DNA from: Candidatus Dojkabacteria bacterium UBA2022 | GTDB lineage: Bacteria; Patescibacteriota; Dojkabacteria; SC72 | NCBI GenBank assembly: GCA_002335495.1 | Contig: DDBW01000002.1 | Span: 9,249 to 73,248 of the forward strand | Reading direction: 5' to 3' | DNA length: 64,000 nt | In this document: positions 434 to 60,385 of the stretch, in pieces | Position numbering within the stretch: the first letter of the stretch is position 1 | Layout: the number at the start of each line of letters is the position of its first letter | The notes under the pieces: generated by a model | Told to the model about the DNA's origin: nothing | Seen by the model: only the letters and a program-made list of their open reading frames with translations | The model's database searches: none | Position numbers and translations under genes: made by a program

Positions 434-1129
434 ATGAATAAAGTAGGAATTATAGGCATAACTTCAGAAGGGGCCTCTATCTGTTATAAAACAGTGGTAT
501 CGGAATCCTCCAAAATCCTAGGAGGTTTCAACAATGTAGAAGTTGCTCTAGTCCAACCGAACTTTAATAGGATATTGGAAGCACAGAAGAGTAAGGATTG
601 GGATAAAGTAGCAGAAATCATCGTAGACTCAGGCAAGGAACTTGAAAAACTCGGAGTCACTAATATCATAATTCCAGCCAACTCAATCCACTTTGCTATC
701 AAACAGATACAAAAGCAACTTACTACGAAAGTAGTTAACCTCTTAGAGGTTGTGAAAGAAGTTTGCTTACGTAAGAACTACAAACGAGCACTAGTGTTAG
801 GCGTAGGCATAACCATGAGTGACCATTTATATAAAGAGGTACTAGAGAAGAACGGCATCGAGTATATGATACCCAGCGAGAAAGAGAGAGAGTTTCTTGA
901 TGAAATAATATACACAGAGCTCGTCAAAGGGGTTATAAATGGGGACTCCACAAAACAAATTCTTGAAACTATCCAAAACGGTAAAGAGAACTCCTGCGAC
1001 GTAGTAATACTCGCCTGCACAGAGCTACCAATGGTAATCAATGATACAAATTCTCCCCTACCAATAATTGATACAACTAGGGAACTCGCAATCGCTGCAT
1101 TAACTGAGGCTCACCACACAACACTCTAA
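434..1129 (+). CDS. Asp/Glu/hydantoin racemase family protein (aspartate racemase-like)
   Basis: 231 aa. N-terminal 'VGIIGITSEGAS' and C-terminal 'VVILACTELP' motifs are typical of the Asp/Glu racemase fold. Confidence 0.7.
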   Translation: MNKVGIIGITSEGASICYKTVVSESSKILGGFNNVEVALVQPNFNRILEAQKSKDWDKVAEIIVDSGKELEKLGVTNIIIPANSIHFAIKQIQKQLTTKVVNLLEVVKEVCLRKNYKRALVLGVGITMSDHLYKEVLEKNGIEYMIPSEKEREFLDEIIYTELVKGVINGDSTKQILETIQNGKENSCDVVILACTELPMVINDTNSPLPIIDTTRELAIAALTEAHHTTL

Positions 1130-1300
1130 CGTAGGATTTAGCGACGCAAATAGTCGTAGAAAGTTTCGAGCAAACGGGGGAAGAAAGAGATGAATCCGGC
1201 TTTACATACTTCCCAACTCACCGGGTCCTTAAAACGGCCTAGTTATTTACACCTCCCTACTCTAGTGCTACCATTCGAATATATTTATCATCATATTTAT

Positions 1301-2023
1301 ATGAAGAAGTTTTTCATATTTCTCGCCGTCTTTCTTTTCATCTTAGCTATCATTATTTTTGCAGGAGCCGCCTACCTTGGCTTCATACCATCCCTCTCGG
1401 ATAAAACTATAAAAAGAGTCGATCTTGGTGTAAAAAATAACCCAAAGCTAAACCAAGAATTAGCAAAAGAAGTAGGATTTACAAACAACATATCGACCTT
1501 AAAAAACCCAACGAAGAGCGATTTCAGATATGAAGGGAAACTCGATATTGAAAGAACTGTAACCTCAGAGCAGGTCACTTCACAGTTTAATGCAATGAGT
1601 AAAGAATCATACTACACCCCATTCACGAATGTGCAGGTCCGATTTAACCCAGACGGAACAACAGAAACAAGTCTAGATCTTGATATAGACCTGGTCACAG
1701 AAGTTGCAAAACAATTAGGATACTCCCAAAGCGACATCGATAAAGCAAAGCAATACGTAAATATCCTAACGCCTAAAGTATACCTATACTCTAAATTCAG
1801 TACAGAAGTAACAAACAACCAAATTACAATTAACCCAAACTCCCTTCAAATCCAAAATATTAATATCCCTGAACAGTTCTTAAGTCCAATCGCAGATGTA
1901 GTTATCTCAATAGTAGAAACTAAGATGAATACAATTCCCAATCTAAACGTAGAGAGTCTAAAGCAAGAAGGTGATAAAATGATATTTAAAGGTACAATAC
2001 CTCAATCAATAAGTATTAAATGA
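1301..2023 (+). CDS. membrane-anchored hypothetical protein
   Basis: The ORF opens at 1190, but the in-frame ATG at 1301 gives an 'MKKFFIFLAVFLFILAIIIFAGAAYLG' signal-anchor, so the real start is probably there. The rest is Thr/Asn-rich and predicted extracytoplasmic. Confidence 0.45.
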   Translation: MKKFFIFLAVFLFILAIIIFAGAAYLGFIPSLSDKTIKRVDLGVKNNPKLNQELAKEVGFTNNISTLKNPTKSDFRYEGKLDIERTVTSEQVTSQFNAMSKESYYTPFTNVQVRFNPDGTTETSLDLDIDLVTEVAKQLGYSQSDIDKAKQYVNILTPKVYLYSKFSTEVTNNQITINPNSLQIQNINIPEQFLSPIADVVISIVETKMNTIPNLNVESLKQEGDKMIFKGTIPQSISIK

Positions 2024-2520
2024 AAAATATATTCACAATAGAATCACTATCAGAGTTCGCACAAATATATACGAAACTCGTAAAATTAGAATTACAACGA
2101 CTTGAAATAAACGAAGAAGAACTTACTCCTGATCACTACGGAGCATTCGTAGGTAGCAAAGAGGAGTTTGACTCTACTTCAGAACAACTCCTAACCTTCT
2201 CAACCTTGATTAAGGAGATTACCCTTCACAACAGAAGAGTTCGAGTATTCAAACTAAACAATCCTCTTCCAGGTATATACTCAATCCCTAAGATTGAAAT
2301 CTTCGAACCAAAACCTGAAGCAGATCTTAAAAAGGAGAGGTTTGGAATAGAGCATATTGCTTTTAAAGTAAAAGATTTTGATACTTTTATAAAATCTATA
2401 GACCCTTCAATATTAGCCAAGCAAGGAGAAGTTGGGAATTCAAAATTCGCAAAGACCAAAACTTTTAACCTAGTTGAGATAGAATTTAGAAGCGATTCAT
2501 TAGGAGAAGAAAATGACTAA
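2020..2520 (+). CDS. hypothetical protein, possibly VOC/glyoxalase-like fold
   Basis: 166 aa. 'GIEHIAFKVKDFD' resembles a VOC-domain beta-strand motif. This is a weak call. The start overlaps the upstream stop by 4 nt, which suggests an operon. Confidence 0.35.
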   Translation: MKNIFTIESLSEFAQIYTKLVKLELQRLEINEEELTPDHYGAFVGSKEEFDSTSEQLLTFSTLIKEITLHNRRVRVFKLNNPLPGIYSIPKIEIFEPKPEADLKKERFGIEHIAFKVKDFDTFIKSIDPSILAKQGEVGNSKFAKTKTFNLVEIEFRSDSLGEEND

Positions 2521-3229
2521 CTACCTCGACAAATTTCAGTCAAAACAACCATTAAATGTAGTATGCATTGGGGATAGCACAACCTCCCAAGAGTGGTGCC
2601 ATCCAAACTGGATAGATTGGATAAACTTCAAGTTCAAACAATCAGATGACTACCCTGCTGGCGTAAACCGACAGATAATAAACTCAGGATACGATGGACA
2701 AAACATAGGATTCTTCCTCGATAACTTTGAAAAAACAATCTCCAAATTCCAACCCGACCTAGTAATATTATCCCTGGGATTTAATCACCTGGAAAACCTA
2801 GAAAACTTTGAAGAAGAAACAATTAGATTAATAAAGAGAATAAAAGAACTAGGAAGTGAAATTGCAATATGGTCCACATACGAAACAATTAACCCTAAAT
2901 ACTCATCTTCCCTTAAACAAGCCTCCAGAATCTACAGTAAAATCGCAGAACAAGAGAGATGCCTATTTATTGATATCTACAGCGAATTCAGGAAGTACCA
3001 CCTTGAAAAACTCTTTACATTCGTACATCAATGGGAAAATACAGAGTGGGAAATGGAACCAGGTGAGATAGATTTCCTCCACTGCAACGAAATAGGCAAC
3101 CAGATTATTGCAGAGAAAGTACTAAGAGAAATCTTTAATACAGACCTCGATTTTGCCAAAGAGTGGATTAGCGAAAAAGGCCAAATGGGAACAATGATTC
3201 CACTAGATACCTCTAAATACCTACTATAA
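2513..3229 (+). CDS. SGNH/GDSL-family hydrolase
   Basis: Block I 'VVCIGDSTT', block III 'GFNHLEN', and a C-terminal D-x-x-H arrangement. Confidence 0.65.
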   Translation: MTNYLDKFQSKQPLNVVCIGDSTTSQEWCHPNWIDWINFKFKQSDDYPAGVNRQIINSGYDGQNIGFFLDNFEKTISKFQPDLVILSLGFNHLENLENFEEETIRLIKRIKELGSEIAIWSTYETINPKYSSSLKQASRIYSKIAEQERCLFIDIYSEFRKYHLEKLFTFVHQWENTEWEMEPGEIDFLHCNEIGNQIIAEKVLREIFNTDLDFAKEWISEKGQMGTMIPLDTSKYLL

Positions 3230-3288
3230 TCCGTTGAATATCTTTCATATAAATTATATCTTTAATAGATAATTTAAATATTTATTGT

Positions 3289-4056
3289 ATGAAAGATAAC
3301 CTTTCACCAAAGTCCCTCAAGAACTTTAACCTGTTCATGGGATTCATGCACTTTGTGCAGGCAGTCGCAATGCTCATCCTCGCCAAGGATTTTAAACTCC
3401 CGATCAATGTCGGATTCTTGAATTTTGATATAACCACTCAGTCCCTAGTACCAGCAACAGAAACAATCTTCGAACTTCCCCTCGTATGGCCAATCGCAGG
3501 ATTTCTCTTCCTATCAGCCCTTGCTCACCTAATAATCTCAACCGTGTACAATAAACAGTATAACGAGGATCTCGCAAATGGAATTAACAAAGCAAGATGG
3601 ATTGAGTACTCCCTCTCCGCATCAACAATGATGCTCGCAATAGCAATGTTGGTTGGAATATATGATCTAGGTTCCCTCGTAATGATATTCTCTTTGACCG
3701 CAGTAATGAATTTAATGGGATTGGTAATGGAGATCCACAATCAAACAACCAAGAAAACGAACTGGTTAAGCTATAACATAGGAGTTTTTGCCGGAGCAAT
3801 TCCTTGGTTGGTAATCGGACTATTCTTCTGGAGTGCATCAAAATATGGAACAGGAGAGATTCCAACCTTTGTATACTGGATCTATGTATCAATCTTCCTA
3901 TTCTTCAACTCCTTCGCAATCAATATGATATTGCAGTATAAAAAGGTAGGAGCATGGAACAACTACACATTCGGTGAAAGAGTCTATATAGTCCTCAGCT
4001 TGGTTGCTAAATCAGCTCTTGCATGGCAGGTATTCGCAGGAACCCTCAGACCTTAA
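3289..4056 (+). CDS. heliorhodopsin-like 7-TM retinal protein (candidate)
   Basis: 255 aa with 7 predicted TM helices. Contains '[10 protein letters not shown]' and '[21 protein letters not shown]' (Lys in TM7). I recall these as hallmark heliorhodopsin motifs, with the Schiff-base Lys in 'SLVAKS'. Recognised from memory only, not searched. Confidence 0.6.
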
Positions 4057-4736
4057 GAGAGGGGTAAGTAATCAGGGATGGCATAACGAACCTCTTTGCA
4101 TACATCATCGTTATGCCCCTTGGTATGAACCACTACATAATCGATACTGCTGTTTTTGGCGCTCATAACTCCCGTAGGAGAATCCTCAAAAATGACTGCC
4201 TCACGAATATTTCCCCCCACTCTTTCCATTGCAGTTAAAAATATATCAGGAGCCGGTTTAGTGTTCTTAACATCTTCAACAAATACGAAAGCATCAAAAT
4301 ACATATCTAAGCCAGTATTTTTAAGAATCAAACTTGCAAACTCCCTTGCGTTAGACGTTCCCACAGCTAACTTTCCCCCACGCTCCTTTATCTTTTTCAA
4401 AAAGTCTTCAAGCCCACTTATTACCCTGACTACTTCCTGGAAATTATTTTCAAGCTGATACCTCTTCTTCGCCCTGTAATGAGTTACGGCAGAATCTACA
4501 TCATATGAGCTCCCGATACTATCAAAGTATTTTGTAAAACCACTCTTTGATCCACTACCGGCAAAATATTTAATATAATCCTGGTACGTAAGCTCCTTTT
4601 CTACAAGCTCCTTAACCGTATCACGAAAGCTCGTATAATTGAGCTCTTCCAAATCGACCATCGTCCCATCTAAATCAAAAAGAAAGAATTTTTTCGTAGA
4701 TAGCAAATTACGAACCTCTTCTAAAGGATAGTTCAT
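4053..4736 (-). CDS. HAD-superfamily hydrolase (beta-phosphoglucomutase-like subfamily IA)
   Basis: Motif I '[11 protein letters not shown]', motif III K, motif IV 'FEDSPTG'. Confidence 0.7.
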
Positions 4737-4756
4737 TTTCGGGTATACAGAACATA

Positions 4757-7700
4757 TTATTTCTTACGAACAGTGATATCTTTAGCCACCACCTTATCGC
4801 TTTTATCTCCAATATTGATAACACTGGATCCGCCATCAAACTTCATCGCTTTATAATCACTTGAGGTGACAACCAACTCATAGGCTCCAGGATACATAAC
4901 AAATCTATACCTACCAGAAGCATCCGTGACTCTCTTTGCGACAAACCTATCAAACTTCAATTCCTTAAGAGCAACTTCGACGTTAGCAACAGGCTTTCCT
5001 TTTACATCCCTCACGTATCCATATTTACTCTGCTGTCCAAATATTGATTTGAAGAGCATCATAAAGGCAGGCACATAGAATGCTAGAACAACCCAGTTGA
5101 GCAAGGTTGGGAACTTAAGAATAGTATAAACAGCAAGAATTATACCTCCGACAAAAATCAATGCGTGTAGAACCTTAAACAGAGTATTTATGGTAGTTCT
5201 AGTAGAGACCGCCAGAGCACTAAACTTGTTAACATCCGTTGGATCAATTGGAATTAAGACTTTGATATCAGTCTTTTGAGACATCTTAAATAGATCTCCC
5301 TTATAAATAGGTTCCAAAGGGTAATCAACAAGCCCTTTAATAATCTCTGTTGGATAGGTAAAGCCAGCTTTTTTAACAAGAATCTTATACTGTCCCTTTG
5401 GAAGCTCTGCATTGAAGGAACCGTAGACATCTGTAACATCAGTCCACACCAATCTATCGTTAGTATCGTATATTCTTACAATAGCTCTTGATACAGGCTC
5501 TTTACTCACTGAGTTATACACATATCCATACGGCTTACCTTTCTTTCTAAAACCTAAGAAGGACAATACTCCCAAGAAAAATTGGGTAATCATATACGGA
5601 ACGGTTGAGAAACCTCCTCCAACAGCTGCAAGTCCAACCGTTACAGTTGCAGCAGTAGCTGTTGTAGCAACAGCGGTTAACTGAGGCTCTTCCAACTCCC
5701 CAACAACGCTGTTATCTAGAGCAATTTTAACTCCATCTATCGCAGCGGTAGCCTGCTGAGGTACGGCGACGACCAGATTTGCGGCTCCATTAACAACAGC
5801 ATTAACAGTTTGATTTGGAGTGTTGATAACAACAACAGGTTCTGGAGTAGGATTGTCAGGATTCTCTTCCCCTTCACCATCCTCATCAGGAACGTTATCG
5901 GTAGGTTCCTTAATAACCTCTCCATCAGTATCAATCTTCTCCCCTAGTCCACCTGTACCGGTAAGGCCCGACACAACCCAATAGCTAACTGAGTCTATAA
6001 CCGCTATAGATACAGTAATTGGTTTGCCCTCTACATCAATGGTCTGAGGGAACGGACCGGCAAATACAACGCTACCTGCACAATCGCTATTAACTTGATC
6101 AATCTCCTCTGCCTTAGTACACAACTTGAATCTGTTAGTATCGCCCTTCTCCACATACATGGAGTACGTGCCTTTGTACCCTGAGTTCTCACTCATTTTA
6201 ACAACCACTCTTCCTGACTGACTTTCGATAACAACTCCGTTCCAATCTCTGTTCTGAGAGAATTCAACAGGGATATCAGCGAGAATCTTTCCGTCCTTCA
6301 TAACCCTAACATCCTGCAAACCTCTCTGTCCTCCTAAATCTTTACTTGGGTCAACTGCATTATTACTCCTTAAAGCAATAGCCAAACCAGCCGGCACATT
6401 TTCGATAATTGCATTGGTTCCATAAGTTCTTCTTGCTCCTAAACCTGTAATTACACCCGCACCGTTTCTGGCGTTCACCCTGAATGAGTAGTCTGTAACA
6501 GGAGTAAGACCTAAGACAAGAACCCCGTTATCTCCTCCAAACTCTGTGTATGTTCCCCATACCTGCTGCGCAACCAATAAGCCAGTTCTGAAGTCTACAT
6601 ATCGCTGCTGAGACTCTTCGTAAATGGAGTAAACAACAGAAGGATCGTTTTGAACACGATTAATTCTAATTCTTGCTGATCTCAAGGTAATAGGAGTGAT
6701 ATCTCCAATTCCTGGAATTCCTGCAACTGCATGAGCAACAAAACTAGAAGATGTCGAAGTTTCAATCTGGTTTCCATTTCTTGCTTTTGCAATTAACTCA
6801 ACCCTTGCTCCAGCAGTTAATCCCGATAACACAATTCCATTAGCGCCACCAAAATCAGCTAATGTTCCCCATACTACAGATGTTGTAAAGGAACCGGTCC
6901 GAGGATCAAGATATCTATTTGTGACTAAATCAAACACACTGTATTGAGTAGAAGCAGGGTTGCTATTTGATGACAACCTAACAACAAGGTTATTTGATGC
7001 ATTCGTGGATACGTAAACTCTACCCGGTACATTTGCAAGAGTGAATAGCTTAGATGAAGTAGATGCAGCCGTCTCTATTCCCTGGTTATTCCTAGATACT
7101 ACCTGATACTCATACTCATTATTCAATGCTAATCCGTTTACAGAAACGCCTTCTGTACTACCCCACTGAGCATATGTTCCCCAAACAGGAGAGTCCTGCC
7201 AGAGTCCATTTGAGTAGTTAAAGTATTTAGAACTTTTTACATCTCGCAGGGAGAATGTTGTAATTGCAGGATTTCCTCCATTATCAACCACAACCTTCAA
7301 ACGAGAGTCTGAAAGGGCGGTCAAGGTTGGAGCCGCAGTAGTAACCGCTAAGGTGTAAATTGTAGACTGGGATGAAGCACTGGTGATAGTATCCTCACCA
7401 TCTTTAGCAACAACTTCAAATATATATTCAGCATTAGCAAACAGCTCGTTTACAAAGACCCCATTTGATCCTCCTAGATCGTTGTATGTATACCAAACAT
7501 CACTATTCACTAACGTTCCATTAGCGTTATTCAAATTACCAACTCGAAGTCCAGACACAACCTCTCTTATCTGGAAAAGGGTATTCGTTGGGTTACCGTT
7601 ACTATTCAAAACTATCTTTACGGTAGTTGAGGAAGGAGCTTCTACAGAAGTAAACTGAGGCACAGATGCAGCTGTATATCTTGTTAATGTATCGCTATAA

Positions 7701-10700
7701 TCACCTCGACCGGTATTGTTATATGCAGCAATTTTTCTTGTGTACTGGGTATTAGGAGTCATGCCGTATTCAATACACGATGTAAGGTTTGTACCAACAC
7801 ACTCAGCAACCTGAACTCCGTCTGCATCGTAAACTCTGTAACCAAGTTCGTTATTCTCATTATCTGTGAAGTTCCACCTAATGGAAGTTTCAGACAGACG
7901 GGTAGCCGTTCCAATTGTTGGAGCCGCCAAGGAAGTACTGATATTAGATCCTACCCCAAAGGACGTCTCAACCTGGTTAGCATTTCGCGCCTTTGAAACA
8001 AACTCATATGTAGTTCCTGAGTCAAGACCAGAAATTAAGTATCCGGAACCAGATCCCCATTGAGCGTATGTCCCCCAAACGGCAGTATCACTTTCATTAC
8101 CCGTATTAAAATCTATATACTTACTTCGTGTACTGTTGTATAGAGCAAACTCAGTGGCAGCAGGATTACCGTTTGGATCAAGCACCACATTCAATGATGT
8201 GACTCCAACAGAATCTGTGGTTACACTTCCAGGAATATTGGCTAGTGTGTAAAGAGATTGAGAACCAGAGAAACTACTGTTAATGTTCTCCAAGTTCCTT
8301 GCAACTGATGAGAAACTATATGAAGAGTTTGGGCTCAAAGCCGTTACTCCAAATCCTGTTACCCCACCCCACTGTGCATAGGTAGCCCAACTTGGTGAAG
8401 CTTGCAAAACTCCGCTGGTACTATTCACATATTGACCAGATCCATTCTCTCTTATGGCAAATTCAGTATTAGAAGGATTGCCTCCATTGCCAATGGTTAC
8501 AATAAGTACGGTTGCAGAGCTATTTTGGACATCTTCAATTGTTGGAGTACTGGCAAGGGTGAATCCAGAAGTTTGGGCAGAGTATGCAGTTTCAACCCCA
8601 TCACTGTTTCTTGCTTTAACCTCGTACACGTATTCAGTATTGGAACTAAGGGAAGTAATATCAATACCCTCTGCTCCTCCGAAATCTGCATATGTCGCCC
8701 AAACAGGATTATCTACCAACGTTCCAGTACTATCGTCTACATATTTATTAGCATTAACATCCCTAAGAACATACTCAGTTGTTGAAGGATTACCTTCTGT
8801 TGCCAAAACGACCTTTAAGGAAGTTGGTGTTAAGCCATCAACAGACTCAATGCTAGGAACAACGGCATGAGTATATACACTTGAAACTGGGCTGAAGGAG
8901 GTTTCTACATTCTCGCTATTCCTTGCTTTAACTTTAAGAGAGTACTGTGTATTGGCTTGAAGGTTATTAACTAAGAAATCAGTCCCGGTTGATACATATT
9001 CAAACCAATATGGAGAAGCAACTAACTCCCCTGTCTGACTATTGTAATAGTATCCAGTAGTTTCATCCTGAATCAAAACTTCCGTTCCTCCAGGATTGCC
9101 ATTCATAGACAGGTTGAAAGAGACTCTTCCTTGAGTACCGGCAATTCCAACTACAGATGGAACAGAAGCATGAGTAACAGCAGATTGAGTTGATGAAGCC
9201 GCACTCTCCGTGTTAGCGTTATATGCCTTAACATATCTTGTATAGGAAGTATTTGCGTTTAAGCTAGTTTCATCACAATACGATAGGTTAACCCCTACAC
9301 ATGTAGCAACTAGGTCCCCGTTTCCATTATAGACCTTGAAACCCTCTTCGTTATTTCCTGTATCCGTAAAATTCCATCGAATACTTTGATTTGAGAGAAC
9401 CTGAGGCGCGGAAATCGTTGGAGTTTTAAGTAGTGTATAAACCGAAGTAGACGCTCCATCGGCAGTAACAACATCATTTGAGTTTTTAGCAACAGCAAGA
9501 AGAGTGTGTTGTATACCCTCTTCCAAACCACTAACAAGTACTCCTCCCCCGGTATTCCATGTGTCAAAATCTGCCCAAACTGGAGTGACAGAAAGAGTTC
9601 CATTTGTAGGGTTTATATAATTAGATCCATTATACTTAACCGCATAGAGGACCGATGTTGGATTCCCATTGGTATTTTCATTAAGAGAAACTCGTAAGGT
9701 ATTAGTACCTATATCTGTTATTGCAGGTGCTAGAGGAACAGCAGCATATGAATTTGTGACAAGGGCAGAGGATATTGCAGTTTCAACCCCATCTCCGTTG
9801 CGAGCCTTTGCTGTAATGGAGACCTGGGTATTAGGCGTTAAACCTGAAAATGTATTCTGACTCCCTGATACCCATCCAGCAGGAGCAACACAACCAGTGC
9901 AGTAATAGAAGATACCACTCTGACCAGAAGATAAGTTAGGAATATTATTAACTTCTACGGTTACCGATGAAGAGTTCGCAGACGCGACATTTATTTCTGG
10001 AACATCTGCATAGGTATAGTTACTAACCGTTAAGGAATATGCGGTTTCGGCACCATCTCCATTTCGAGCCTTAACTTGGAAGGTGTATTGGGTATTCTGA
10101 GTCAAAGAGGTAACATTTGCGGTCGTATTTGTAGTCCAAGTCTCAACTCCGGTCTCACATCCTACAACAGTGCAATCAATGAATACAGCACTAGAGCCTG
10201 CACCTAGGTTGGTTGTACCAGTAACAGATAGAGCCATCGAATTACCGTTAACAGAGGTAATCGATACCGCTGGGACGCTGGTTTCAGTATATCGCGAGAC
10301 AGCACTTGATTGTAGACTATCTCCATTATTATTATATGCGACGATATATCTTGTGTATTGAGTATTTGCCTGTAGACCAGTTTCATCACAGTATGTAAGA
10401 TTTTCACCTACACATGTAGCCTTAACTTCTCCTAATCCATCTAACACCTTGAAACCGACTTCATTATTAGCATTATCAACAAAGTTCCACCTTATACTAC
10501 TTGTACTCAAAGCCTGGGCTGGTACCGCAGTAGGAGCAGCGGGAGCATTAGACTCCTCATATCCAATAGATGCCGTTATAGAATCGGTAGCATTATTTTT
10601 CTTTTGCCCAAAAATAACGTCTGTATAGGTAGGAATATTTGAACCCGCGACAGTATTGGCGACCATTGTATGAGCATGATAAGACGAAGACAGCGTACCC

Positions 10701-11992
10701 TCATTCAGGCTATTCCTAGGGTGTCGACCTCCAACATAAGTGCTTAATATAACCGTTAATGAATGAGTATGTGTACCAGCACCTCCAGTTGCTCCATATG
10801 TAGAAGCTCCTCTTGGAAACCTTGAGTCAAGAGAAGTAAAACGCGTCCAACCAAGCGGAGGTAATACCGTGACGGGAGTAATCATACTACCCGGGGCAAC
10901 ACCATTTGAGTTAATAGAACCATAAATAATATTTAGATAAGGGGGAGTATTTGTTGCAGCAGCTGTAGTCCCCGAAAGAGAAGTGTGAGAATGACCTTCC
11001 CAGGCTCCATCCCCCCCTCCATCGGCGCCTGCGGAGCAAGCACCACTAGAACCCGCCGTCGAGTACCCTCCCGCGTAAGGATGAGTATGCGTATCACTTC
11101 CACCAGTTGTCCCATATGTAGCCGCCCCTCTTGGAAATCTTCCATCTAATGCAGTAACTCTTGTCCAACCCACAGGGACAGAAGTATTAAAGATTCCTAT
11201 TGCCCCTGAGCTTAAATTAAGGTTAGAGGCCTGACAAAAAACAGTACCTACGTAAGGAGGAACTATGCTAGTATTATTAGTATCGACTCTCACTCCACTG
11301 TGCCCTTCAACAGAAGAAAGAACGCTATTACAAGCAGCAGTATTTGTAGTTGATGTTGCCGTCGGACCGCCAGAAGTCCCCGTCACTGAGCCGTGATTAT
11401 GAGTATCGACCCCTCCCGTGGCTCCATAACTAACTGCTCCCCGAATGAACCTATTATCAAGTGCAGATACCCTTGTCCAACCCACGGGGCAGGAGGTACC
11501 GCTCATTACAATAAACTGGCCCGCCCACGCCTGCTGAGCGTTAGTGGCAGACGCATTTCCGTAATAAATATAAATTTGCTTTCCTCCACTGGGTAGACTT
11601 GGAACTCTTACCCACACTTGAGTAGTCACTGTATTACATCCTCCTTCAACCCAGTACGAAAGAGTTGTACTATCGTCACTATCAACAAATCTTATGTCAT
11701 CACAGTCATTTTGAATTTTCCCTGCAGCAACTAACGAGGAGGTATCAATACTCACTAATACATCATAATTAGACTTCGAAGTACCTGGATTCGCAACCGT
11801 AATTGGCTTTCTATACTCCCACGAACTGTTGTACCAAGACTGAGCAGGAGTAATGAAGTGATCTAAGAGTAAAATAGTGACTGGGGTAACCACAACTACA
11901 AGAAAAAGCATTAAAAAAGAGATCCATCTAGGCGCTCTTTTCACCTTTTCTGATAGCAAAGATACTATCTGAGGACTAGATTGATTGTTCAC
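4757..11992 (-). CDS. giant membrane-anchored surface protein (2411 aa)
   Basis: A single 7.2-kb ORF. Order of parts: N-terminal TM; DUF2341-like segment ('WEYRKPITV...DIRFVD...QVWVRVPSL...IYIYYGN'); three repeats of 'GWTRV.ALD.RF.RGA..YG.TGG.DTHTH...PPY..IIYG' resembling the phage tail-collar/MdpB domain; about 20 FN3-like modules including three near-identical '[18 protein letters not shown]' modules; C-terminal TM helices alternating with two CarboxypepD_reg-like beta-sandwich segments ('[22 protein letters not shown]', '[19 protein letters not shown]'). Confidence 0.85.
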
Positions 11993-12070
11993 CGCATTTT
12001 ATTTGTTATATATAACCTACTAGTAATTTAGAAACTTTACCTAGTGAAGTCAACAAATAAAAACTATAGC

Positions 12071-16197: not shown

Positions 16198-16610
16198 TGG
16201 TGGAGACGGTGGGAATCGAACCCACGTCCAAAAGCATCACATAAGACCGTTATACAAGCTTATTCCATCTTCTTTTACCAAGAATACCTGTAAGATGAAA
16301 AGAAAAGTATCCCTGACCAATATATATTCTCATCACTAAACCATACTGGGAAGTATTAGTGACATACCCTAATAACGACCGACTACCAAACCTGATTAGG
16401 GACAAATCGGGTAATCGTTAGTCTAATTAAAGACTAAACTTAGCCTAAGTAAGAGAGATTAAGTGAAGCACTAAGTCTTGCACCTACCTCTTGAACCTTA
16501 CCTAAGAAAGCGTTAACTGTATTTTTTGCAGTTATATTTTGTTGTTTTAAGAGCTACAACTCTGCTTGCGGTACATACGCTCTGACCTCTGTCGAAAGCC
16601 TTACGTCCCC
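16198..16610 (-). ncRNA. ssrA: tmRNA (ssrA)
   Basis: On the minus strand the 5' end reads 'GGGGACGUAAGGCUUUCGACAGAGG'. The 3' end reads 'GACGUGGGUUCGAUUCCCACCGUCUCCACCA', giving a T-arm plus a 7-bp acceptor stem (GGGGACG/CGUCUCC with one G-U pair) and an encoded CCA. The roughly 410-nt body has an internal ORF ending 'UAA GUU UAG'. The tag reading frame is not resolved. Confidence 0.7.
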
Positions 16611-24015: not shown

Positions 24016-24108
24016 TGGCGGAGAGAGAGGGATTCGAACCCTCGATACCCTTTTGGGGTAAACCGCGTTTCGAGTGCGGCGCAATAGACCGGACTATGCG
24101 ATCTCTCC
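24016..24108 (-). tRNA. tRNA-Ser (anticodon CGA), type II with long variable arm
   Basis: Minus strand: acceptor GGAGAGA/UCUCUCC, discriminator G, encoded CCA, T-arm GAGGG-UUCGAAU-CCCUC, anticodon loop CU-CGA-AA, extra arm UACCC-CAAAA-GGGUA. Confidence 0.7.
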
Positions 24109-38111: not shown

Positions 38112-38201
38112 TGGCGGAGAGACAGGGATTCGAACCCTGGGTACAGTTTCCTGTACGAACGCCTTCCAAGCGTTTCCTTTCGACCACTCAGGCATCTCTC
38201 C
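38112..38201 (-). tRNA. tRNA-Ser (anticodon GGA), type II
   Basis: Minus strand: GGAGAGA acceptor, anticodon stem AACGC/GCGUU with loop UU-GGA-AG, long extra arm, T-arm CAGGG-UUCGAAU-CCCUG, discriminator G, encoded CCA. Confidence 0.7.
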
Positions 38202-55437: not shown

Positions 55438-58400
55438 TTATTTCCTATTCCACACGAGTTTAAAATTATTATCAGACTTCTCCTTTATTTGAGTTAGAAG
55501 TTGGTTGAGAACATTATCCATGCCTGAAGGATCAATAACTGCCCATGTATCAGGGTAAGTTATGTTTACAGACAGAGTATCCTCTGAACCGGTTCCGGGT
55601 TGTTTGAAAGTTGATAACACAAATTCAATATCCTGGTTGCTTACAGAGAGAGGTTTGTAAGTGCTTTCAGGAGTTAGGCTATACTTAATTTCTAGCGTCT
55701 TTGATGTTTGTATTGGGACATTTAACCATCCACCAACCACTTTATAGCCATTTTCCAGATAGATCTGGTAATCAGTATCTGTAAATCCTTTAATAGATTT
55801 TATCTGTGCACTTTCAGGAAGGTATGCTCTTACATAGTTAGTATAATCTCCTAATGGGTATACTTTGCTTGTTGCAGAGTTTCTTAGTACCAGCTGGTAG
55901 GTATAATCAACCTTGTCTATATCTAAAATGTCTATATTAAGGGTTTTACTCCTCTCAACTTTCGTATTCACTTTATTCGCTCCCCAGTTCCATTCAATTG
56001 TAAGAGGGGCTGATTTATATTTTTCTCCTAAAGTTCCTGCCCATCCGTTCTGTTCTAAGTAATCGTATGCTTCTAAGTTTTTAAGATATACATTTATATG
56101 TTTTGAGTTCAAAGAATCAATCATAGCTGTTCCAATCTTTGGATAATCCTCTACCTTGGCAGATAGCACACGCTGCAAAAGAGTGTTAGCTAAGTTGGCT
56201 AGGAAAGGTGCTTTCAAACTTTCGCCGGGGGTAAACTGTTTATGTAAATTGGTAATTCTTTCGTCAAGATTATCTGCCGTCACTGGCTGAGTTTCCCCAG
56301 GGATAATAACTTCATCCCAAACGGTTAAGAGGGCTTTTAATACTTCAGTGTCTATCGCAATTGTTCCATCGAGTTCGGTCCCTGGGTCTACTTTATCCAT
56401 AAGGGATTCATTTATCGCAGTTACATTCTGTAAATCAGGCTCCCAGTTTGAAAGTGAGAAGGTGAAGTTTTCAACCTCAAGCGCCTTGCGCATTGATTGA
56501 GGAGGTAACACTTTTATGTCGTTATTAATTAGGCGACCGTCTAGGTTGTAGATGTCGTCAACTTTTAATTCTCTAATCTGGCCTCCTTCAAAGGAGATCA
56601 ACGCGTAGCTTGATAGCCAGCCTCCTGTGCTGCGCAATTCGGCAGGGTTTTGCAGGAGTATAAGGTATCTAACTCGCTTTTCGTTTCCAAGGACATCAGG
56701 CAGGAATGTTATTACTTTTTCAACTGGGTCTATCTGGGATTTAAGCTGGTCGTTATATTCTTTTAGTACAATGATGTAATTCTGTACCGGAGTTGGGAAT
56801 ACAGACACTTTTACATTCTCGATCAAGTCTGAGGCAATATTTACATTGTATACTCCTTTTTGCAGCAGGGAACGGTTCTGTTTGAGCTGGGTTAGATATT
56901 CCCGGTACTCGCGACTGGAAGAAGGTAAGTCTGTTTGAAAGTTTAATGCCGGCTCAAAATTCTGCACATATAATGAAAGTGGTTCTATGGCTGTCATAAT
57001 ATCTCTCGCTCCTTGAATGCCATATTGGCTTGCAAATACGAGTTGAGTGAAATTGTCGTATGTCTCTTCTGTCCCAGTTGCCTGGAAGGCCCATTTAAGT
57101 TGTCCCAACGACGAACTTATCTTAGTTAGATAGTTCTCAGATTTTACCAACTGAGAGTTGGCATCATCTAACTTGAACTCTAGGGCATAATCTTTTGCTT
57201 TATCCAGAGACTTGTAAGTAAGGTATCCCCCTAAACCTAACGAGAAGAGTGGGTAGAGAAGGAATATAAATAGAAGGGTTGTTAGAACTACGCCGATGCT
57301 TAGATATCCTATCTTTAATGGGGTGAGACTTGATTTGAATTTTTGTACTTTATTAGATCCGCTTCGACTGATTCTTTTAAATGGACGGGCTATTGTATCA
57401 AGTAGCTCTCCAAGTGGAGTTTTTACATTTTTTACTTTTACTACTACTTCCTCTTCAACTTTTTTAGGTTCTTCCCTTTTTCTTTTTATAATCTGGCCTG
57501 TCTTTGGATATAACTTGTTGATAGTGTCAACAATTGTTTGTTCAAGAGTTACGGTTTGTTTCCATCCAAAATTGGATGCGTTAGGAGCTGGAATGTAGTG
57601 CTCATAACTTATATACTTCGAATCGGTCTTTGTGGGGCCGAATTTAATATCAGATATGTCGTCGTTAATTTCTAATAACTTGTATGCAAGAGATAGCGTT
57701 GTGTAATCATTTTGGTTGGTTAGGGATATAACCTCTCCCTCCGTTTTATTTTGAAAGGTTAACTTCAAAATCCCGTAAATTGCATCCTCAATGTTTATTA
57801 GGTAGTGCAACTGAAGGCCTTCTCCATATATAGTTATAAACCCTTTATTTGAGCTGTCATTTAGAAGGTCTTCTATAATTGGATCTGTTATCTCTGCTAT
57901 CTCACTTCCAAGGAGGGTTCCTAGTCTAATTATTCTGGCGTTCATCTTTGATTTATCACGATATTCGGCGGTTAGAGTTTCGCAGTATTTTTGAAGCTCG
58001 ATTGCAGAATATGGGGCTGGAGCAGAAAGATTTGAATTTAAAATGTGTGCTGAGAGCTTCTCGTTAAGTTTGATTGAAGTTACGAGAGCTACTTTAGAGT
58101 CGTTCTTCTGTGCAACTTTCAGGGTTTGATTTAGGTAGTTTGATTCTTCCAAGAAGTCTTTGCTTGAAAAAGTATCGTGTTCTAAAAGTTTTTCTGATAG
58201 TAGATAGTAGATATAGTCAATTCTTCCCAAGGTTTTATAGAGAGCTTCAATTCCCGTGAAATCTATAAAATCGGCATTGCCAATTTTCTTAAGTTCACTA
58301 ACAAAACCCTTAGATCGGCTGTTGAAGTTATCTACTATTATGACTTGTCCTCCTTGCTCTAAAAGGGTTTTTGCTAGCTTAAAGCCAAGGGGGTTACCAC

Positions 58401-58473
58401 CGTGGACGACTACTGATACTGTCGTACTAACTTTTATTTCAGAATATTTACTCGCCATTACTTTGTTCTTCAA
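55438..58473 (-). CDS. fusion protein: N-terminal NAD(P)-binding epimerase/dehydratase-like domain + TM + large DUF4012-like extracytoplasmic domain (1011 aa)
   Basis: N-terminal Rossmann 'VVVHGGNPLGFKLAKTLLEQGGQVIIVDNF'. TM 'IGYLSIGVVLTTLLFIFLLYPLF'. The C-terminal region has 'RYLILLQNPAELRSTGGWLSSYALISFEGG', which resembles the DUF4012 core. Confidence 0.7.
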   Translation of the reverse strand: MKNKVMASKYSEIKVSTTVSVVVHGGNPLGFKLAKTLLEQGGQVIIVDNFNSRSKGFVSELKKIGNADFIDFTGIEALYKTLGRIDYIYYLLSEKLLEHDTFSSKDFLEESNYLNQTLKVAQKNDSKVALVTSIKLNEKLSAHILNSNLSAPAPYSAIELQKYCETLTAEYRDKSKMNARIIRLGTLLGSEIAEITDPIIEDLLNDSSNKGFITIYGEGLQLHYLINIEDAIYGILKLTFQNKTEGEVISLTNQNDYTTLSLAYKLLEINDDISDIKFGPTKTDSKYISYEHYIPAPNASNFGWKQTVTLEQTIVDTINKLYPKTGQIIKRKREEPKKVEEEVVVKVKNVKTPLGELLDTIARPFKRISRSGSNKVQKFKSSLTPLKIGYLSIGVVLTTLLFIFLLYPLFSLGLGGYLTYKSLDKAKDYALEFKLDDANSQLVKSENYLTKISSSLGQLKWAFQATGTEETYDNFTQLVFASQYGIQGARDIMTAIEPLSLYVQNFEPALNFQTDLPSSSREYREYLTQLKQNRSLLQKGVYNVNIASDLIENVKVSVFPTPVQNYIIVLKEYNDQLKSQIDPVEKVITFLPDVLGNEKRVRYLILLQNPAELRSTGGWLSSYALISFEGGQIRELKVDDIYNLDGRLINNDIKVLPPQSMRKALEVENFTFSLSNWEPDLQNVTAINESLMDKVDPGTELDGTIAIDTEVLKALLTVWDEVIIPGETQPVTADNLDERITNLHKQFTPGESLKAPFLANLANTLLQRVLSAKVEDYPKIGTAMIDSLNSKHINVYLKNLEAYDYLEQNGWAGTLGEKYKSAPLTIEWNWGANKVNTKVERSKTLNIDILDIDKVDYTYQLVLRNSATSKVYPLGDYTNYVRAYLPESAQIKSIKGFTDTDYQIYLENGYKVVGGWLNVPIQTSKTLEIKYSLTPESTYKPLSVSNQDIEFVLSTFKQPGTGSEDTLSVNITYPDTWAVIDPSGMDNVLNQLLTQIKEKSDNNFKLVWNRK

Positions 58474-59137: not shown

Positions 59138-60385
59138 TTAATAGGAATATTTGGACTCAGGACTCTCTTGGCTAACTCGTTTAGCCTCCTCCTCTTTTTT
59201 CTTTTGAGCTTTCTTATTTAGAATTACTATTCCAAGTAGAGTTACGAAAAGGATAAATAGGAGGAAGAAGAATTTATATGCGCCGGTAGTTAGAACGGCG
59301 ACAACTCCAAAGAAAACTGCAATAGTGGTTTCTACCAGTAGAATTTGGGGAGGAGTTAAGTTCATGTTGTAGAGTTGGTGGTGAAGATGCATAGGACCGT
59401 TTATTCTCATCAATTCTATGAAGTTCTTTGGTTTATATGTTCTGTATCGGTGGATAATTACATAAAGGGCATCTATAAGTGGGATTGCTAAAATGATTAT
59501 TGTAGCCGCTACTTTCGCTCCATTCACTAGTGCGAGTACCGCTATTATAAATCCGTACATTGTTTTTCCAGTCGATCCTGTAAATATCTTCGCTGGAGGG
59601 AAATCGAATATCCATCCCCCGGCAATTCCCCCTGCCAATGCTATAGAAGTGTAGGTTACAAGTAGGCTTTCGGCTCTTATTCCTAATACAAACATCATCA
59701 GGTATGCCACAATCATGTTACTTTCAAGTAATCCTCCTATTCCTCCCACCCATTTAACTGCATTTGTACAAAGCATAATCCAGAAAATTAATAGTAGATC
59801 TCCTGGTAAGATGAGGCGGAGAGTTATATCTAGTATATTTCCATCAATTTGCCACCAATTAAGGTTGAAAGTGCCGCCTAAAGGGTTGTTTATAAATGGT
59901 ATATCAATAGCAGATATTGCAATAACTGTTGAAGCTACTAGTTGTCCTGCAAGCTGAATAGGGGCTGGGAGGTTGTATACGTCATCCAATATTCCGATTA
60001 TTAGTAGGATTACTCCGGCGGTTAAAAACGGTATTACTAACTCATTGTTCGTAATAAGCAACGGGATACTTAGTAGTAATGGAAGCAGGACTGCAACCCC
60101 CCCTAGTAGTGGAGTGGGAGTTTTATGGATAGCCTTAATTCCTTGCGTTTGGTCATATGGATTCAGCTTCTCTACTCTCATTTGGGCGGGTAGATCTATT
60201 GCGTTTACCTTCTGAGCAATTCTGGCAATGATTGGTTTTAAAAGTAGAACGAGAATAAAAAATATTAGAAATACTGGGGCAAATTGAAGATACTTCATGT
60301 AATTTTCTGGAATATTAGGGTATTGCTCTGCTTTTAACAGAATATTTTGTAGTAGGTTTGTAGCATTAATAAGAAGTTCTCCCAT
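59138..60385 (-). CDS. polyprenyl-phosphate N-acetylhexosamine-1-phosphate transferase family (MraY/WecA-like), divergent
   Basis: 'GILDDVYNL' is the DDxxD motif and 'NAVKWVGGIGGL' aligns to the conserved 'NAxNxxDGxDGL' motif. About 10 TM helices. Confidence 0.6.
   Translation of the reverse strand: MGELLINATNLLQNILLKAEQYPNIPENYMKYLQFAPVFLIFFILVLLLKPIIARIAQKVNAIDLPAQMRVEKLNPYDQTQGIKAIHKTPTPLLGGVAVLLPLLLSIPLLITNNELVIPFLTAGVILLIIGILDDVYNLPAPIQLAGQLVASTVIAISAIDIPFINNPLGGTFNLNWWQIDGNILDITLRLILPGDLLLIFWIMLCTNAVKWVGGIGGLLESNMIVAYLMMFVLGIRAESLLVTYTSIALAGGIAGGWIFDFPPAKIFTGSTGKTMYGFIIAVLALVNGAKVAATIIILAIPLIDALYVIIHRYRTYKPKNFIELMRINGPMHLHHQLYNMNLTPPQILLVETTIAVFFGVVAVLTTGAYKFFFLLFILFVTLLGIVILNKKAQKKKEEEAKRVSQESPESKYSY

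Follow-up and report, generated by a model that had tools for sequence, protein, structure and literature searches.

A putative giant surface fibre of Candidatus Dojkabacteria with a strain-variable triplet of phage tail-collar-type units

Analysing a 64,000-nucleotide stretch of the genome of Candidatus Dojkabacteria bacterium UBA2022 (contig DDBW01000002.1, positions 9,249 to 73,248; hereafter the window), we characterized a single gene, located at 4757-11992 on the minus strand, that encodes a giant protein of 2411 amino acids (aa). Our results established the domain composition of this protein, the homology of three tandem units near its N-terminus with phage tail-collar modules, a rule by which tandem units of this family come in multiples of three, their recurrent fusion to a DUF2341 segment, and the replacement of the whole triplet as a cassette between strains. 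Taken together, they make it rather probable that the protein is a giant surface fibre of the Dojkabacteria cell, bearing a swappable recognition head of phage type for strain-specific attachment to a partner or host cell. This proposal also involves a pseudo-trimeric head, metal binding, signal-peptide cleavage, a membrane topology and an adhesive function, all of them predicted.

The way in which Patescibacteria (the Candidate Phyla Radiation, CPR) and DPANN archaea find and attach to their hosts is largely unexplained, with pili and a few unnamed adhesins implicated so far. The locus described here provides a concrete candidate determinant of host specificity, making host range testable. 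On a more tentative reading, set out below, episymbionts and phages would share one pool of receptor-binding modules directed at the same type of target, the bacterial cell surface.

Domain architecture of the giant protein

An earlier note, made from the letters of the sequence, had described one 2411-aa open reading frame (ORF) with a DUF2341-like segment, three successive collar-like units, about 20 fibronectin type III (FN3) modules and a C-terminus in which three transmembrane (TM) helices are interleaved with two CarboxypepD_reg-like domains. Most of this layout was recovered. The ORF lies on the minus strand and opens with a GTG codon; the NCBI gene call starts 16 codons further in and names the product "DUF2341 domain-containing protein" of Candidatus Dojkabacteria. 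Three of the four Pfam families that the note had put forward were matched, namely PF10102 DUF2341 (62.9 bits against a gathering threshold of 23.4, E 3.9e-17; aa 96-154, profile positions 1-60 of 84), PF00041 fn3 (97.5 bits against 25, E 5.4e-28, six stretches passing) and PF13620 CarboxypepD_reg (54.6 bits against 32.3, E 1.4e-14, two stretches); the fourth, PF07484 Collar, was not. The three C-terminal hydrophobic segments and the two CarboxypepD_reg domains alternate as described, according to hydropathy and Pfam. The count of FN3 modules had to be lowered, as a self-trained hidden Markov model (HMM) resolved 14 of them across aa 466-1862. The features of the gene are as follows.

4757..11992, minus strand: whole ORF, 2411 aa, GTG start, alternative start 16 codons downstream
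11855..11923, minus strand: N-terminal hydrophobic helix, aa 24-46 (hydropathy); signal anchor or, more likely, cleavable signal peptide (junction between AQS and W, aa 50-53)
11537..11836, minus strand: DUF2341 beta-sandwich segment, aa ~53-152 (Pfam match 96-154)
11225..11536, minus strand: collar-like unit 1, aa 153-256 (unit HMM); first HxH motif HNH, second motif degenerate (E-G-H)
10910..11224, minus strand: collar-like unit 2, aa 257-361 (unit HMM); HTH ... HSH
10598..10906, minus strand: collar-like unit 3, aa 363-465 (unit HMM); HTH ... HAH
10598..11590, minus strand: strain-variable cassette, aa ~134-465; not alignable by blastn with locus L033, flanks 93-94% identical
6407..10597, minus strand: stalk of 14 FN3 modules, aa 466-1862 (self-trained HMM, Pfam)
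5939..6415, minus strand: beta-rich domain, aa ~1860-2018 (from sequence; matched by no Pfam family)
5663..5938, minus strand: linker, aa ~2019-2110, acidic and Pro-rich, then Ala/Thr-rich (from sequence)
5549..5617, minus strand: transmembrane helix A, aa ~2126-2148, followed by a basic RKKGK (hydropathy)
5288..5530, minus strand: CarboxypepD_reg-like domain 1, aa ~2155-2235 (Pfam; homologs P0106-P0108); predicted cytoplasmic
5039..5194, minus strand: transmembrane hairpin B/C, aa 2267-2318, segments ~2267-2290 and 2296-2318 (hydropathy)
4778..5020, minus strand: CarboxypepD_reg-like domain 2, aa ~2325-2405 (Pfam, best stretch 2325-2382)

A large family of repeat units akin to phage tail-collar modules

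The repeat region (aa 150-470) matched nothing in Pfam (E<=10), NCBIfam, PHROGs or the PDB sequences, and a profile search of the PDB returned only 7z47_I at E 0.62. A first database search yielded 82 homologs. An HMM of the unit (~103 aa), built from the aligned repeat units of homologs and of the window protein itself, delineated three tandem units of ~104 aa in the latter, each at E 1e-26 to 1e-31, in agreement with the three successive N-terminal units noticed earlier. Searched exhaustively with HMMER against 1.84 billion representatives, this model retrieved 5,827 clusters at 50% identity (E<=1e-3). The unit family is thus large and unannotated, and is missed by current domain libraries.

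Its consensus reads P.G.I..F....P.GWTR...LD.RFPRGA.TYG.TGG..THTH - variable loop - H.H...T....LPPY..V.F. In the unit alignment the GG pair, the first HxH motif and the proline of PPY are invariant, and the W, the F, the second HxH motif and the Y are present in more than 90% of units. The four histidine positions of the unit HMM (H46/H48 and H76/H78) are occupied by histidine in 93-97% of 429 units. Units 1 to 3 of the window protein have HNH, HTH and HTH as their first HxH motif, and E-G-H, HSH and HAH as the second.

The earlier note had assigned these units to the phage tail-collar or microcystin-dependent (MdpB) type, an assignment that profile and structure comparisons sustain and that Pfam alone does not return: PF07484 (gathering threshold 24 bits) had no match in the full-length protein at E<=1 or in the repeats taken alone at E<=10. 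To compare the unit with its phage counterparts, we drew on 326 phage records bearing a tail-collar, minor-tail or short-tail-fibre annotation, and aligned the C-terminal modules of six GenBank collar proteins taken from them. Aligned with hhalign against this phage profile, a profile of 38 units matched with a probability of 95.5% (E 1.4e-8) over 102 columns, query positions 3-104 to template positions 1-176. The match runs end to end with one large gap, corresponding to 32 residues absent from the unit ("CDGQAVSRTTYA.LF..GT.YG.GDGSTTFNLP") and located between "P.GW" and "DLRGRF" in the phage modules. These deleted residues make up most of the 57-position Collar model of Pfam, which is why PF07484 fails on the units. 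Among the relatives, unit 3 of P0063, which keeps the 32-residue segment, is the only one to give a sub-threshold Collar match (18.2 bits, E 0.0025, profile positions 1-24), and another unit relative passes the YmaF model over the HxH region. Conversely, the unit HMM scored 17.7 bits on the collar protein of Pelagibacter phage HTVC027P.

Structural comparison pointed in the same direction. With the AlphaFold model of the triplet as query, Foldseek matched in BFVD the Actinoplanes phage phiAsp2 proteins Pas29 and Pas28 (E 1e-15), an entry named "Phage tail collar domain containing protein" (E 8.8e-5) and the tail fibre of an Aeromonas phage (E 1.6e-3); the same search against the PDB gave nothing significant. 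Among cultured phages, tblastn of the units hit phiAsp2 alone. The units are thus homologous to the phage tail-collar or MdpB-type receptor-binding module, of which they form a deletion variant that lies beyond the limits of the Pfam family.

Units occur singly or in multiples of three

Single units always formed the very C-terminal end of their proteins, which measure 170-640 aa and are found in phage settings. One such gene (locus L002) lies two genes downstream of a tape-measure gene, in a neighbourhood that also has integrases and an HNH gene, and in P0034 the single unit sits behind a collagen-like stalk. On one viral contig (L023, IMG/VR UViG_3300009537_000056), three consecutive genes at 639-5465, encoding 641, 420 and 427 aa, each end in one unit; this trio resembles a cassette of alternative tail-fibre tips.

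All other clean arrays were triplets or multiples of them. The cultured Actinoplanes phage phiAsp2 (NC_005885) carries exactly three units in each of two tail-module proteins, Pas28 and Pas29, whose genes directly follow that of the large tail protein Pas27. Triplets were also present in P0001-P0011 and other homologs, in IMG/VR contigs L025 and L026, and in 12 of the 15 loci from GTDB genomes. Counting units in the 146 best of the 5,827 cluster representatives, we found three units in 120 proteins, six in 22, nine in one, four in one and five in two. By run structure, 116 of the 146 contain one run of three, 17 two runs of three, five one run of six and one three runs of three. In the seven exceptions, either the protein is truncated at its N-terminus or a large insertion in the variable loop splits a unit; clean runs of two, four or five units were absent from these 146. 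The same pattern of one or three was seen in the first homolog set, the GTDB genome loci and the IMG/VR contigs.

Within triplets the units follow each other almost without interruption, with a median linker of 1 residue (range -2 to 9; 143 triplets). In three groups of proteins, each unit is closest to the unit of the same rank in other proteins (1 to 1, 2 to 2, 3 to 3), and P0001, whose units are 98% identical, and L009 look like independent triplications.

Other features of these arrays were also observed. A 2022-aa protein from JGI (P0146) contains nine units as three triplets with ~135-aa spacers and without the DUF2341 segment. In many triplets (P0163, P0175, P0195 and others) the variable loop of a single unit, most often unit 2, is enlarged by an insertion of 100-800 aa; unit 2 is also the one enlarged in L011, L014 and L019, and the insert of L019 is a Pfam Gly_rich_2 domain.

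A single-chain pseudo-trimer or serial homotrimers

Canonical collar and fibre-tip domains are homotrimeric, as in T4 gp12 and gp37, and in both of these proteins histidine rings formed by HxH motifs hold metal ions on the axis. We consider it likely that the three units of the window protein reproduce this arrangement within one chain, as a pseudo-trimer of the homotrimeric fibre tip packed around a pseudo-threefold axis. Modelled with AlphaFold from 14 sequences, the region aa 150-472 reached a pTM of 0.74 with cores at pLDDT >90, only the three inter-HxH loops being disordered; a single unit modelled from 38 sequences reached a pTM of 0.43, and its GG..HxH segment fell from ~95 to ~62. Over the whole triplet, Foldseek gave a TMq of 0.58-0.60 against independent models of Pas28 and Pas29. 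Furthermore, the returning strand of a canonical collar module is the last element of its protein, which suggests that the module has its N- and C-termini on one side; together with linkers of about one residue and unit counts of 3, 6 and 9, this makes pseudo-threefold packing of a single chain the simplest reading. By analogy with the phage tips, rings of HxH histidines may hold such a pseudo-trimer together through bound metal.

Several points temper this geometry. It is deduced from pTM values, Foldseek TM-scores and copy-number statistics, and AlphaFold could read the inter-chain contacts of true homotrimers as contacts between repeats. In addition, unit 1 of the window protein has no clean second HxH motif, and across the family HxH loss mostly affects one unit per triplet rather than being all-or-none, so that this loss does not separate a pseudo-trimer from serial trimers.

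The competing arrangement is a homotrimeric fibre in which the whole 2411-aa chain trimerises, each unit pairing with its equivalents across three chains to give three successive collars along the shaft. The homotrimeric state of the canonical domains favours it, as do the single-unit proteins, which are almost certainly trimers, and the location of Pas28 and Pas29 in a tail module, a setting rich in trimeric proteins; the position-specific divergence of units and the loss of HxH in single units are also compatible with it. However, it does not account for unit counts limited to 3, 6 and 9 that arose by independent triplications, and linkers of about one residue are hard to fit to serial stacking if the termini lie at the same end, a geometry taken from the collar alignment. 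The higher pTM of the single-chain triplet (0.74 vs 0.43 for one unit) and the large insertions restricted to one unit of the triplet (L011, L014, L019) also disfavour it. We therefore regard the homotrimeric fibre as unlikely, and retain the single-chain pseudo-trimer as the working model for the head.

Exchange of the head between strains

A second allele of the giant protein (P0087) was identified at the same syntenic locus (L033) in Logan run ERR3281024. Its identity with the window protein differs strongly from one region to another:

N-terminus and DUF2341 segment: 79%
unit 1: 26.5%
unit 2: 42.1%
unit 3: 35.9%
FN3 array: 95.6%
beta-domain and linker: 100%
anchor: 99%

At the nucleotide level, positions 400-1395 of the gene (aa 134-465) could not be aligned with L033 by blastn, with flanks 93-94% identical. 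As stalk and anchor are conserved and the triplet is unalignable, the exchange of a cassette between these two strains concerns the triplet alone. The divergent units of P0087 keep the scaffold motifs (GW, GG, HxH, PPY), with changes in the loops. This exchange resembles, by analogy, the behaviour of phage receptor-binding tips and adhesin heads.

A diversity-generating retroelement was considered as a source of the head variability and ruled out, since the window holds no matching template repeat: its direct repeats are limited to three FN3 modules of one subtype and two tRNA-Ser genes.

The DUF2341-triplet head in relatives

The earlier note had taken the combination of domains for one that it could not place. 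Its N-terminal part, the DUF2341 segment with the three units, is in fact recurrent: an HMM of the DUF2341 segment detected this segment in 89 of the 146 best representatives, in at least 85 of which it directly abuts the triplet, and these proteins are annotated at most as "DUF2341 domain-containing protein". Proteins with two triplets carry two DUF2341 segments. Named relatives belong to Dojkabacteria, Saccharibacteria, Paceibacterota and an unclassified Patescibacteria metagenome-assembled genome (MAG), with further members in MAGs labelled Actinobacteria, Gammaproteobacteria and Chloroflexi, and in a Woesearchaeota archaeon where two triplets are found in a 5808-aa protein.

At the Saccharibacteria loci, the N-terminus consists of a basic stretch, a helix, a ~10-aa linker and a "W..SSW.YR(K/R)" DUF2341 segment followed by the triplet. 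Downstream of the head these proteins vary, with Ig_Rha78A_N repeats or Laminin_G_3 domains, and L019 has a C-terminal CarbopepD_reg_2 domain and a TM segment. Five Saccharibacteria head proteins (L010, L011, L015, L020 and P0002) share a motif at their extreme C-terminus, F(R/K)FEG(L/I)xLEG(L/I)KI(N/D), which may act in sorting or anchoring as a signal not recognised so far.

Large DUF2341 proteins have been reported in Patescibacteria, with a suggested role in adhesion (PMC11809585), and DUF2341 has been linked to PilY-type tip adhesins, which applies here by analogy only (PMC4858521). The window protein has no class III (prepilin) signal motif at its N-terminus and no pilus gene adjoins its gene, the neighbours being EamA, NUDIX, HAD and heliorhodopsin genes; a PilM/FtsA-like gene lies ~29 kb away. 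In the literature we found no description of the triplet, of its phage kinship or of the rule of three, and nothing relevant on a pseudo-trimeric collar or on phage-fibre domains in surface proteins of Patescibacteria.

More tentatively, and with somewhat less than even confidence, we suggest that DUF2341 and the three minimised collar units together constitute a widespread supradomain that has not been described before, a metal-stapled single-chain pseudo-trimer derived from, or ancestral to, phage fibre tips, which the giant surface proteins of ultrasmall host-dependent prokaryotes employ as an exchangeable host-specificity cassette. The multiples-of-three rule looks like a natural fusion of a homotrimer into a single chain, of relevance to the engineering of phage receptor-binding proteins and to protein evolution.

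Stalk, membrane anchor and N-terminus

Assuming ~3.5 nm per FN3 module, the stalk is estimated at ~50 nm. One FN3 subtype, marked by "SIRWNF.D..NNE.GF.V", occupies stalk modules 1, 5 and 10 and corresponds to 167-nt direct DNA repeats of 62-70% identity (7719-7885, 9219-9385 and 10332-10498); this spacing suggests a super-repeat of the stalk.

The anchor, in which one TM helix, a CarboxypepD_reg domain, two TM helices and a second CarboxypepD_reg domain follow each other, recurs in four other proteins, all of them C-terminal fragments and the only relatives detected; P0105-P0108 carry this CarboxypepD_reg module. Both helix exits are basic. Because the chain would cross the membrane once between the ectodomain and domain 1, and a helical hairpin connects domain 1 to domain 2, both CarboxypepD_reg-like domains should be cytoplasmic, which would be unusual for this fold.

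At the other end, every homolog of the head has small residues at positions -3 and -1 directly before a conserved Trp at the start of DUF2341. This suggests cleavage by signal peptidase, after which the head would form the free end, distal to the membrane, of a fibre anchored by its C-terminus. The signal-anchor and the two-ended membrane attachment of the earlier note are therefore uncertain: the hydrophobic segment at aa 24-46 is there, and its sequence context suggests a cleaved signal peptide.

Proposed build and function

In the build that we propose, the protein would be exported by the Sec pathway and its N-terminal helix probably cleaved just before Trp53, leaving a mature N-terminus formed by a ~415-aa head, in which the DUF2341 beta-sandwich is followed by the three tandem shortened collar or fibre-tip modules. 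The three units would stand side by side on a pseudo-threefold axis, so that one chain imitates the homotrimeric tip of phage fibres, and their two HxH motifs would form two rings of up to six histidines able to bind metal ions along that axis, like those of T4 gp37 and gp12. The three long, low-complexity loops between the HxH motifs would then constitute the exposed apex that touches the ligand. Beneath the head, the fourteen FN3 modules would form a stalk of ~50 nm, continued by the beta-domain and the acidic linker down to the three-helix membrane anchor, with the two CarboxypepD_reg-like domains on the cytoplasmic side. The head would be the specificity determinant, strains swapping the triplet while keeping stalk and anchor. 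Patescibacteria epibionts have been reported to need several adhesins, including an FN3 protein (PMC10633639).

Some considerations weigh against this proposal. Surface exposure, an adhesive role and metal binding of the window protein are predicted from its sequence. Its homologs in Saccharibacteria have the N-terminal helix only, without a C-terminal TM segment, and were the helix uncleaved in the window protein, the head would be membrane-proximal rather than distal. Dojkabacteria are themselves putative epibionts; the epibiotic lifestyle invoked by the earlier note fits at the level of the phylum Patescibacteria, and no further. Finally, a hypervariable exposed head would also fit an escape from phages or predators for which it is a receptor.

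This last point leads to an alternative in which the protein is a structural, S-layer-like spacer of the envelope and its head varies to escape phages or predators, not to choose partners. Exchange of the exposed head alone is also a signature of phage-receptor evasion, and a membrane-anchored protein with a long stalk and a head without known ligand would suit such a spacer. Against it, the exchanged units are themselves homologues of phage receptor-binding modules, the conservation of scaffold motifs while loops change is the pattern of a retargeted binding module, and DUF2341 has been linked, by analogy only, to PilY-type tip adhesins (PMC4858521). We judge the spacer improbable, and favour a surface fibre for strain-specific attachment.

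Genomic context of the giant gene

The window is ordinary chromosome and the giant gene is cellular, given its chromosomal setting in Candidatus Dojkabacteria (Patescibacteria), which bears out the earlier proposal of collar-type domains on a cellular protein. The window encodes leucyl- and methionyl-tRNA synthetases (LeuRS, MetRS), RNase J, primase and the transfer-messenger RNA (tmRNA), and housekeeping genes extend along its whole length, with no phage genes found near the giant gene. Identical copies of the 2411-aa protein exist in ENA, NCBI, JGI and Logan assemblies, and the gene recurs with its EamA, NUDIX, HAD and heliorhodopsin neighbours in independent assemblies, on contigs of up to 341 kb.

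The DNA encoding the triplet has a GC content of 48%, the maximum of the window (10001-12000), vs ~38% in neighbouring genes. Its GC at third codon positions (GC3) is 0.32, inside the 0.29-0.47 range of the other genes of the window. A foreign origin of the triplet on the basis of GC was accordingly ruled out, the ordinary GC3 implying that the excess stems from the Gly/Ala/Thr/Ser-rich composition of the units. That the gene is not cellular, being a prophage or a misassembled phage tail-fibre gene, would agree with its phage-type units and with the GC excess of the triplet, and is effectively refuted by the independent assemblies, the housekeeping context free of phage genes and the ordinary GC3.

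Other features of the window were recorded. A heliorhodopsin gene (3289-4056, plus strand; Pfam PF18761, E 3e-97; "heliorhodopsin HeR" of Ca. Dojkabacteria at NCBI) lies two genes from the giant gene and overlaps by 4 nt the end of the HAD phosphatase gene. An ORF of 1011 aa (55438-58473, minus strand) joins an NAD-dependent epimerase domain to DUF4012, and is adjoined by a glycosyltransferase family 4 gene (59138-60385). The tmRNA gene (16198-16610, minus strand) encodes the tag AKNTVNAFLGKVQEVGARLSASLNLSYLG. Two tRNA-Ser genes, with anticodons CGA and GGA (24016-24108 and 38112-38201, both on the minus strand), have in common a 42-nt repeat of 88% identity.

Comparison with known systems

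Phage collar proteins (PF07484, MdpB-like proteins, T4 gp12) present the same order of motifs as the window units: a P.G.I..F....P.GW hairpin, (D)LRGRFP.G, GG and then H.H, followed by a variable stretch, a second H.H in many members and a last strand, QP(Y/F)..(I/L)..II, that ends the protein. They are encoded in phage tail modules and carry the module at the C-terminal tip of the fibre, whereas the window units form an obligate triplet within the chain of a cellular protein, near its N-terminus. The HxH motifs recall the metal-binding tips of the T4 gp37 (PDB 2XGF), Bizionia C24 (PDB 6OV6), Pa223 and A-1(L) fibres.

Among the closest phage proteins are Pas28 and Pas29 of phiAsp2. Both contain three members of this unit family in tandem (unit HMM E 1e-9 to 1e-20), and Pas29 is annotated as a possible receptor-recognising protein with HXHY motifs. 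Unlike the window protein, both are phage virion proteins without DUF2341, FN3 stalk or membrane anchor, and their inter-HxH loops are longer.

The large DUF2341 proteins of Patescibacteria and archaea (MJ1470-type) share with the window protein the presence of DUF2341 in very large secreted proteins of ultrasmall prokaryotes, which have been proposed to act in adhesion or in interaction with the host; in the published accounts (PMC11809585, PMC4858521) this domain is treated alone, without the adjoining triplet, its phage kinship or a fused module.

Finally, giant adhesins with repeat stalks, including the essential FN3 envelope protein of the Saccharibacterium Southlakia epibionticum (PMC10633639), follow the same logic of an anchor, a beta-sandwich stalk and a terminal binding head. 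The window protein, known from sequence alone, differs from them in its anchor, formed by three membrane helices and by two CarboxypepD_reg-like domains predicted to be cytoplasmic rather than by an LPXTG, S-layer or outer-membrane attachment, and in its head, which appears to be phage-derived.

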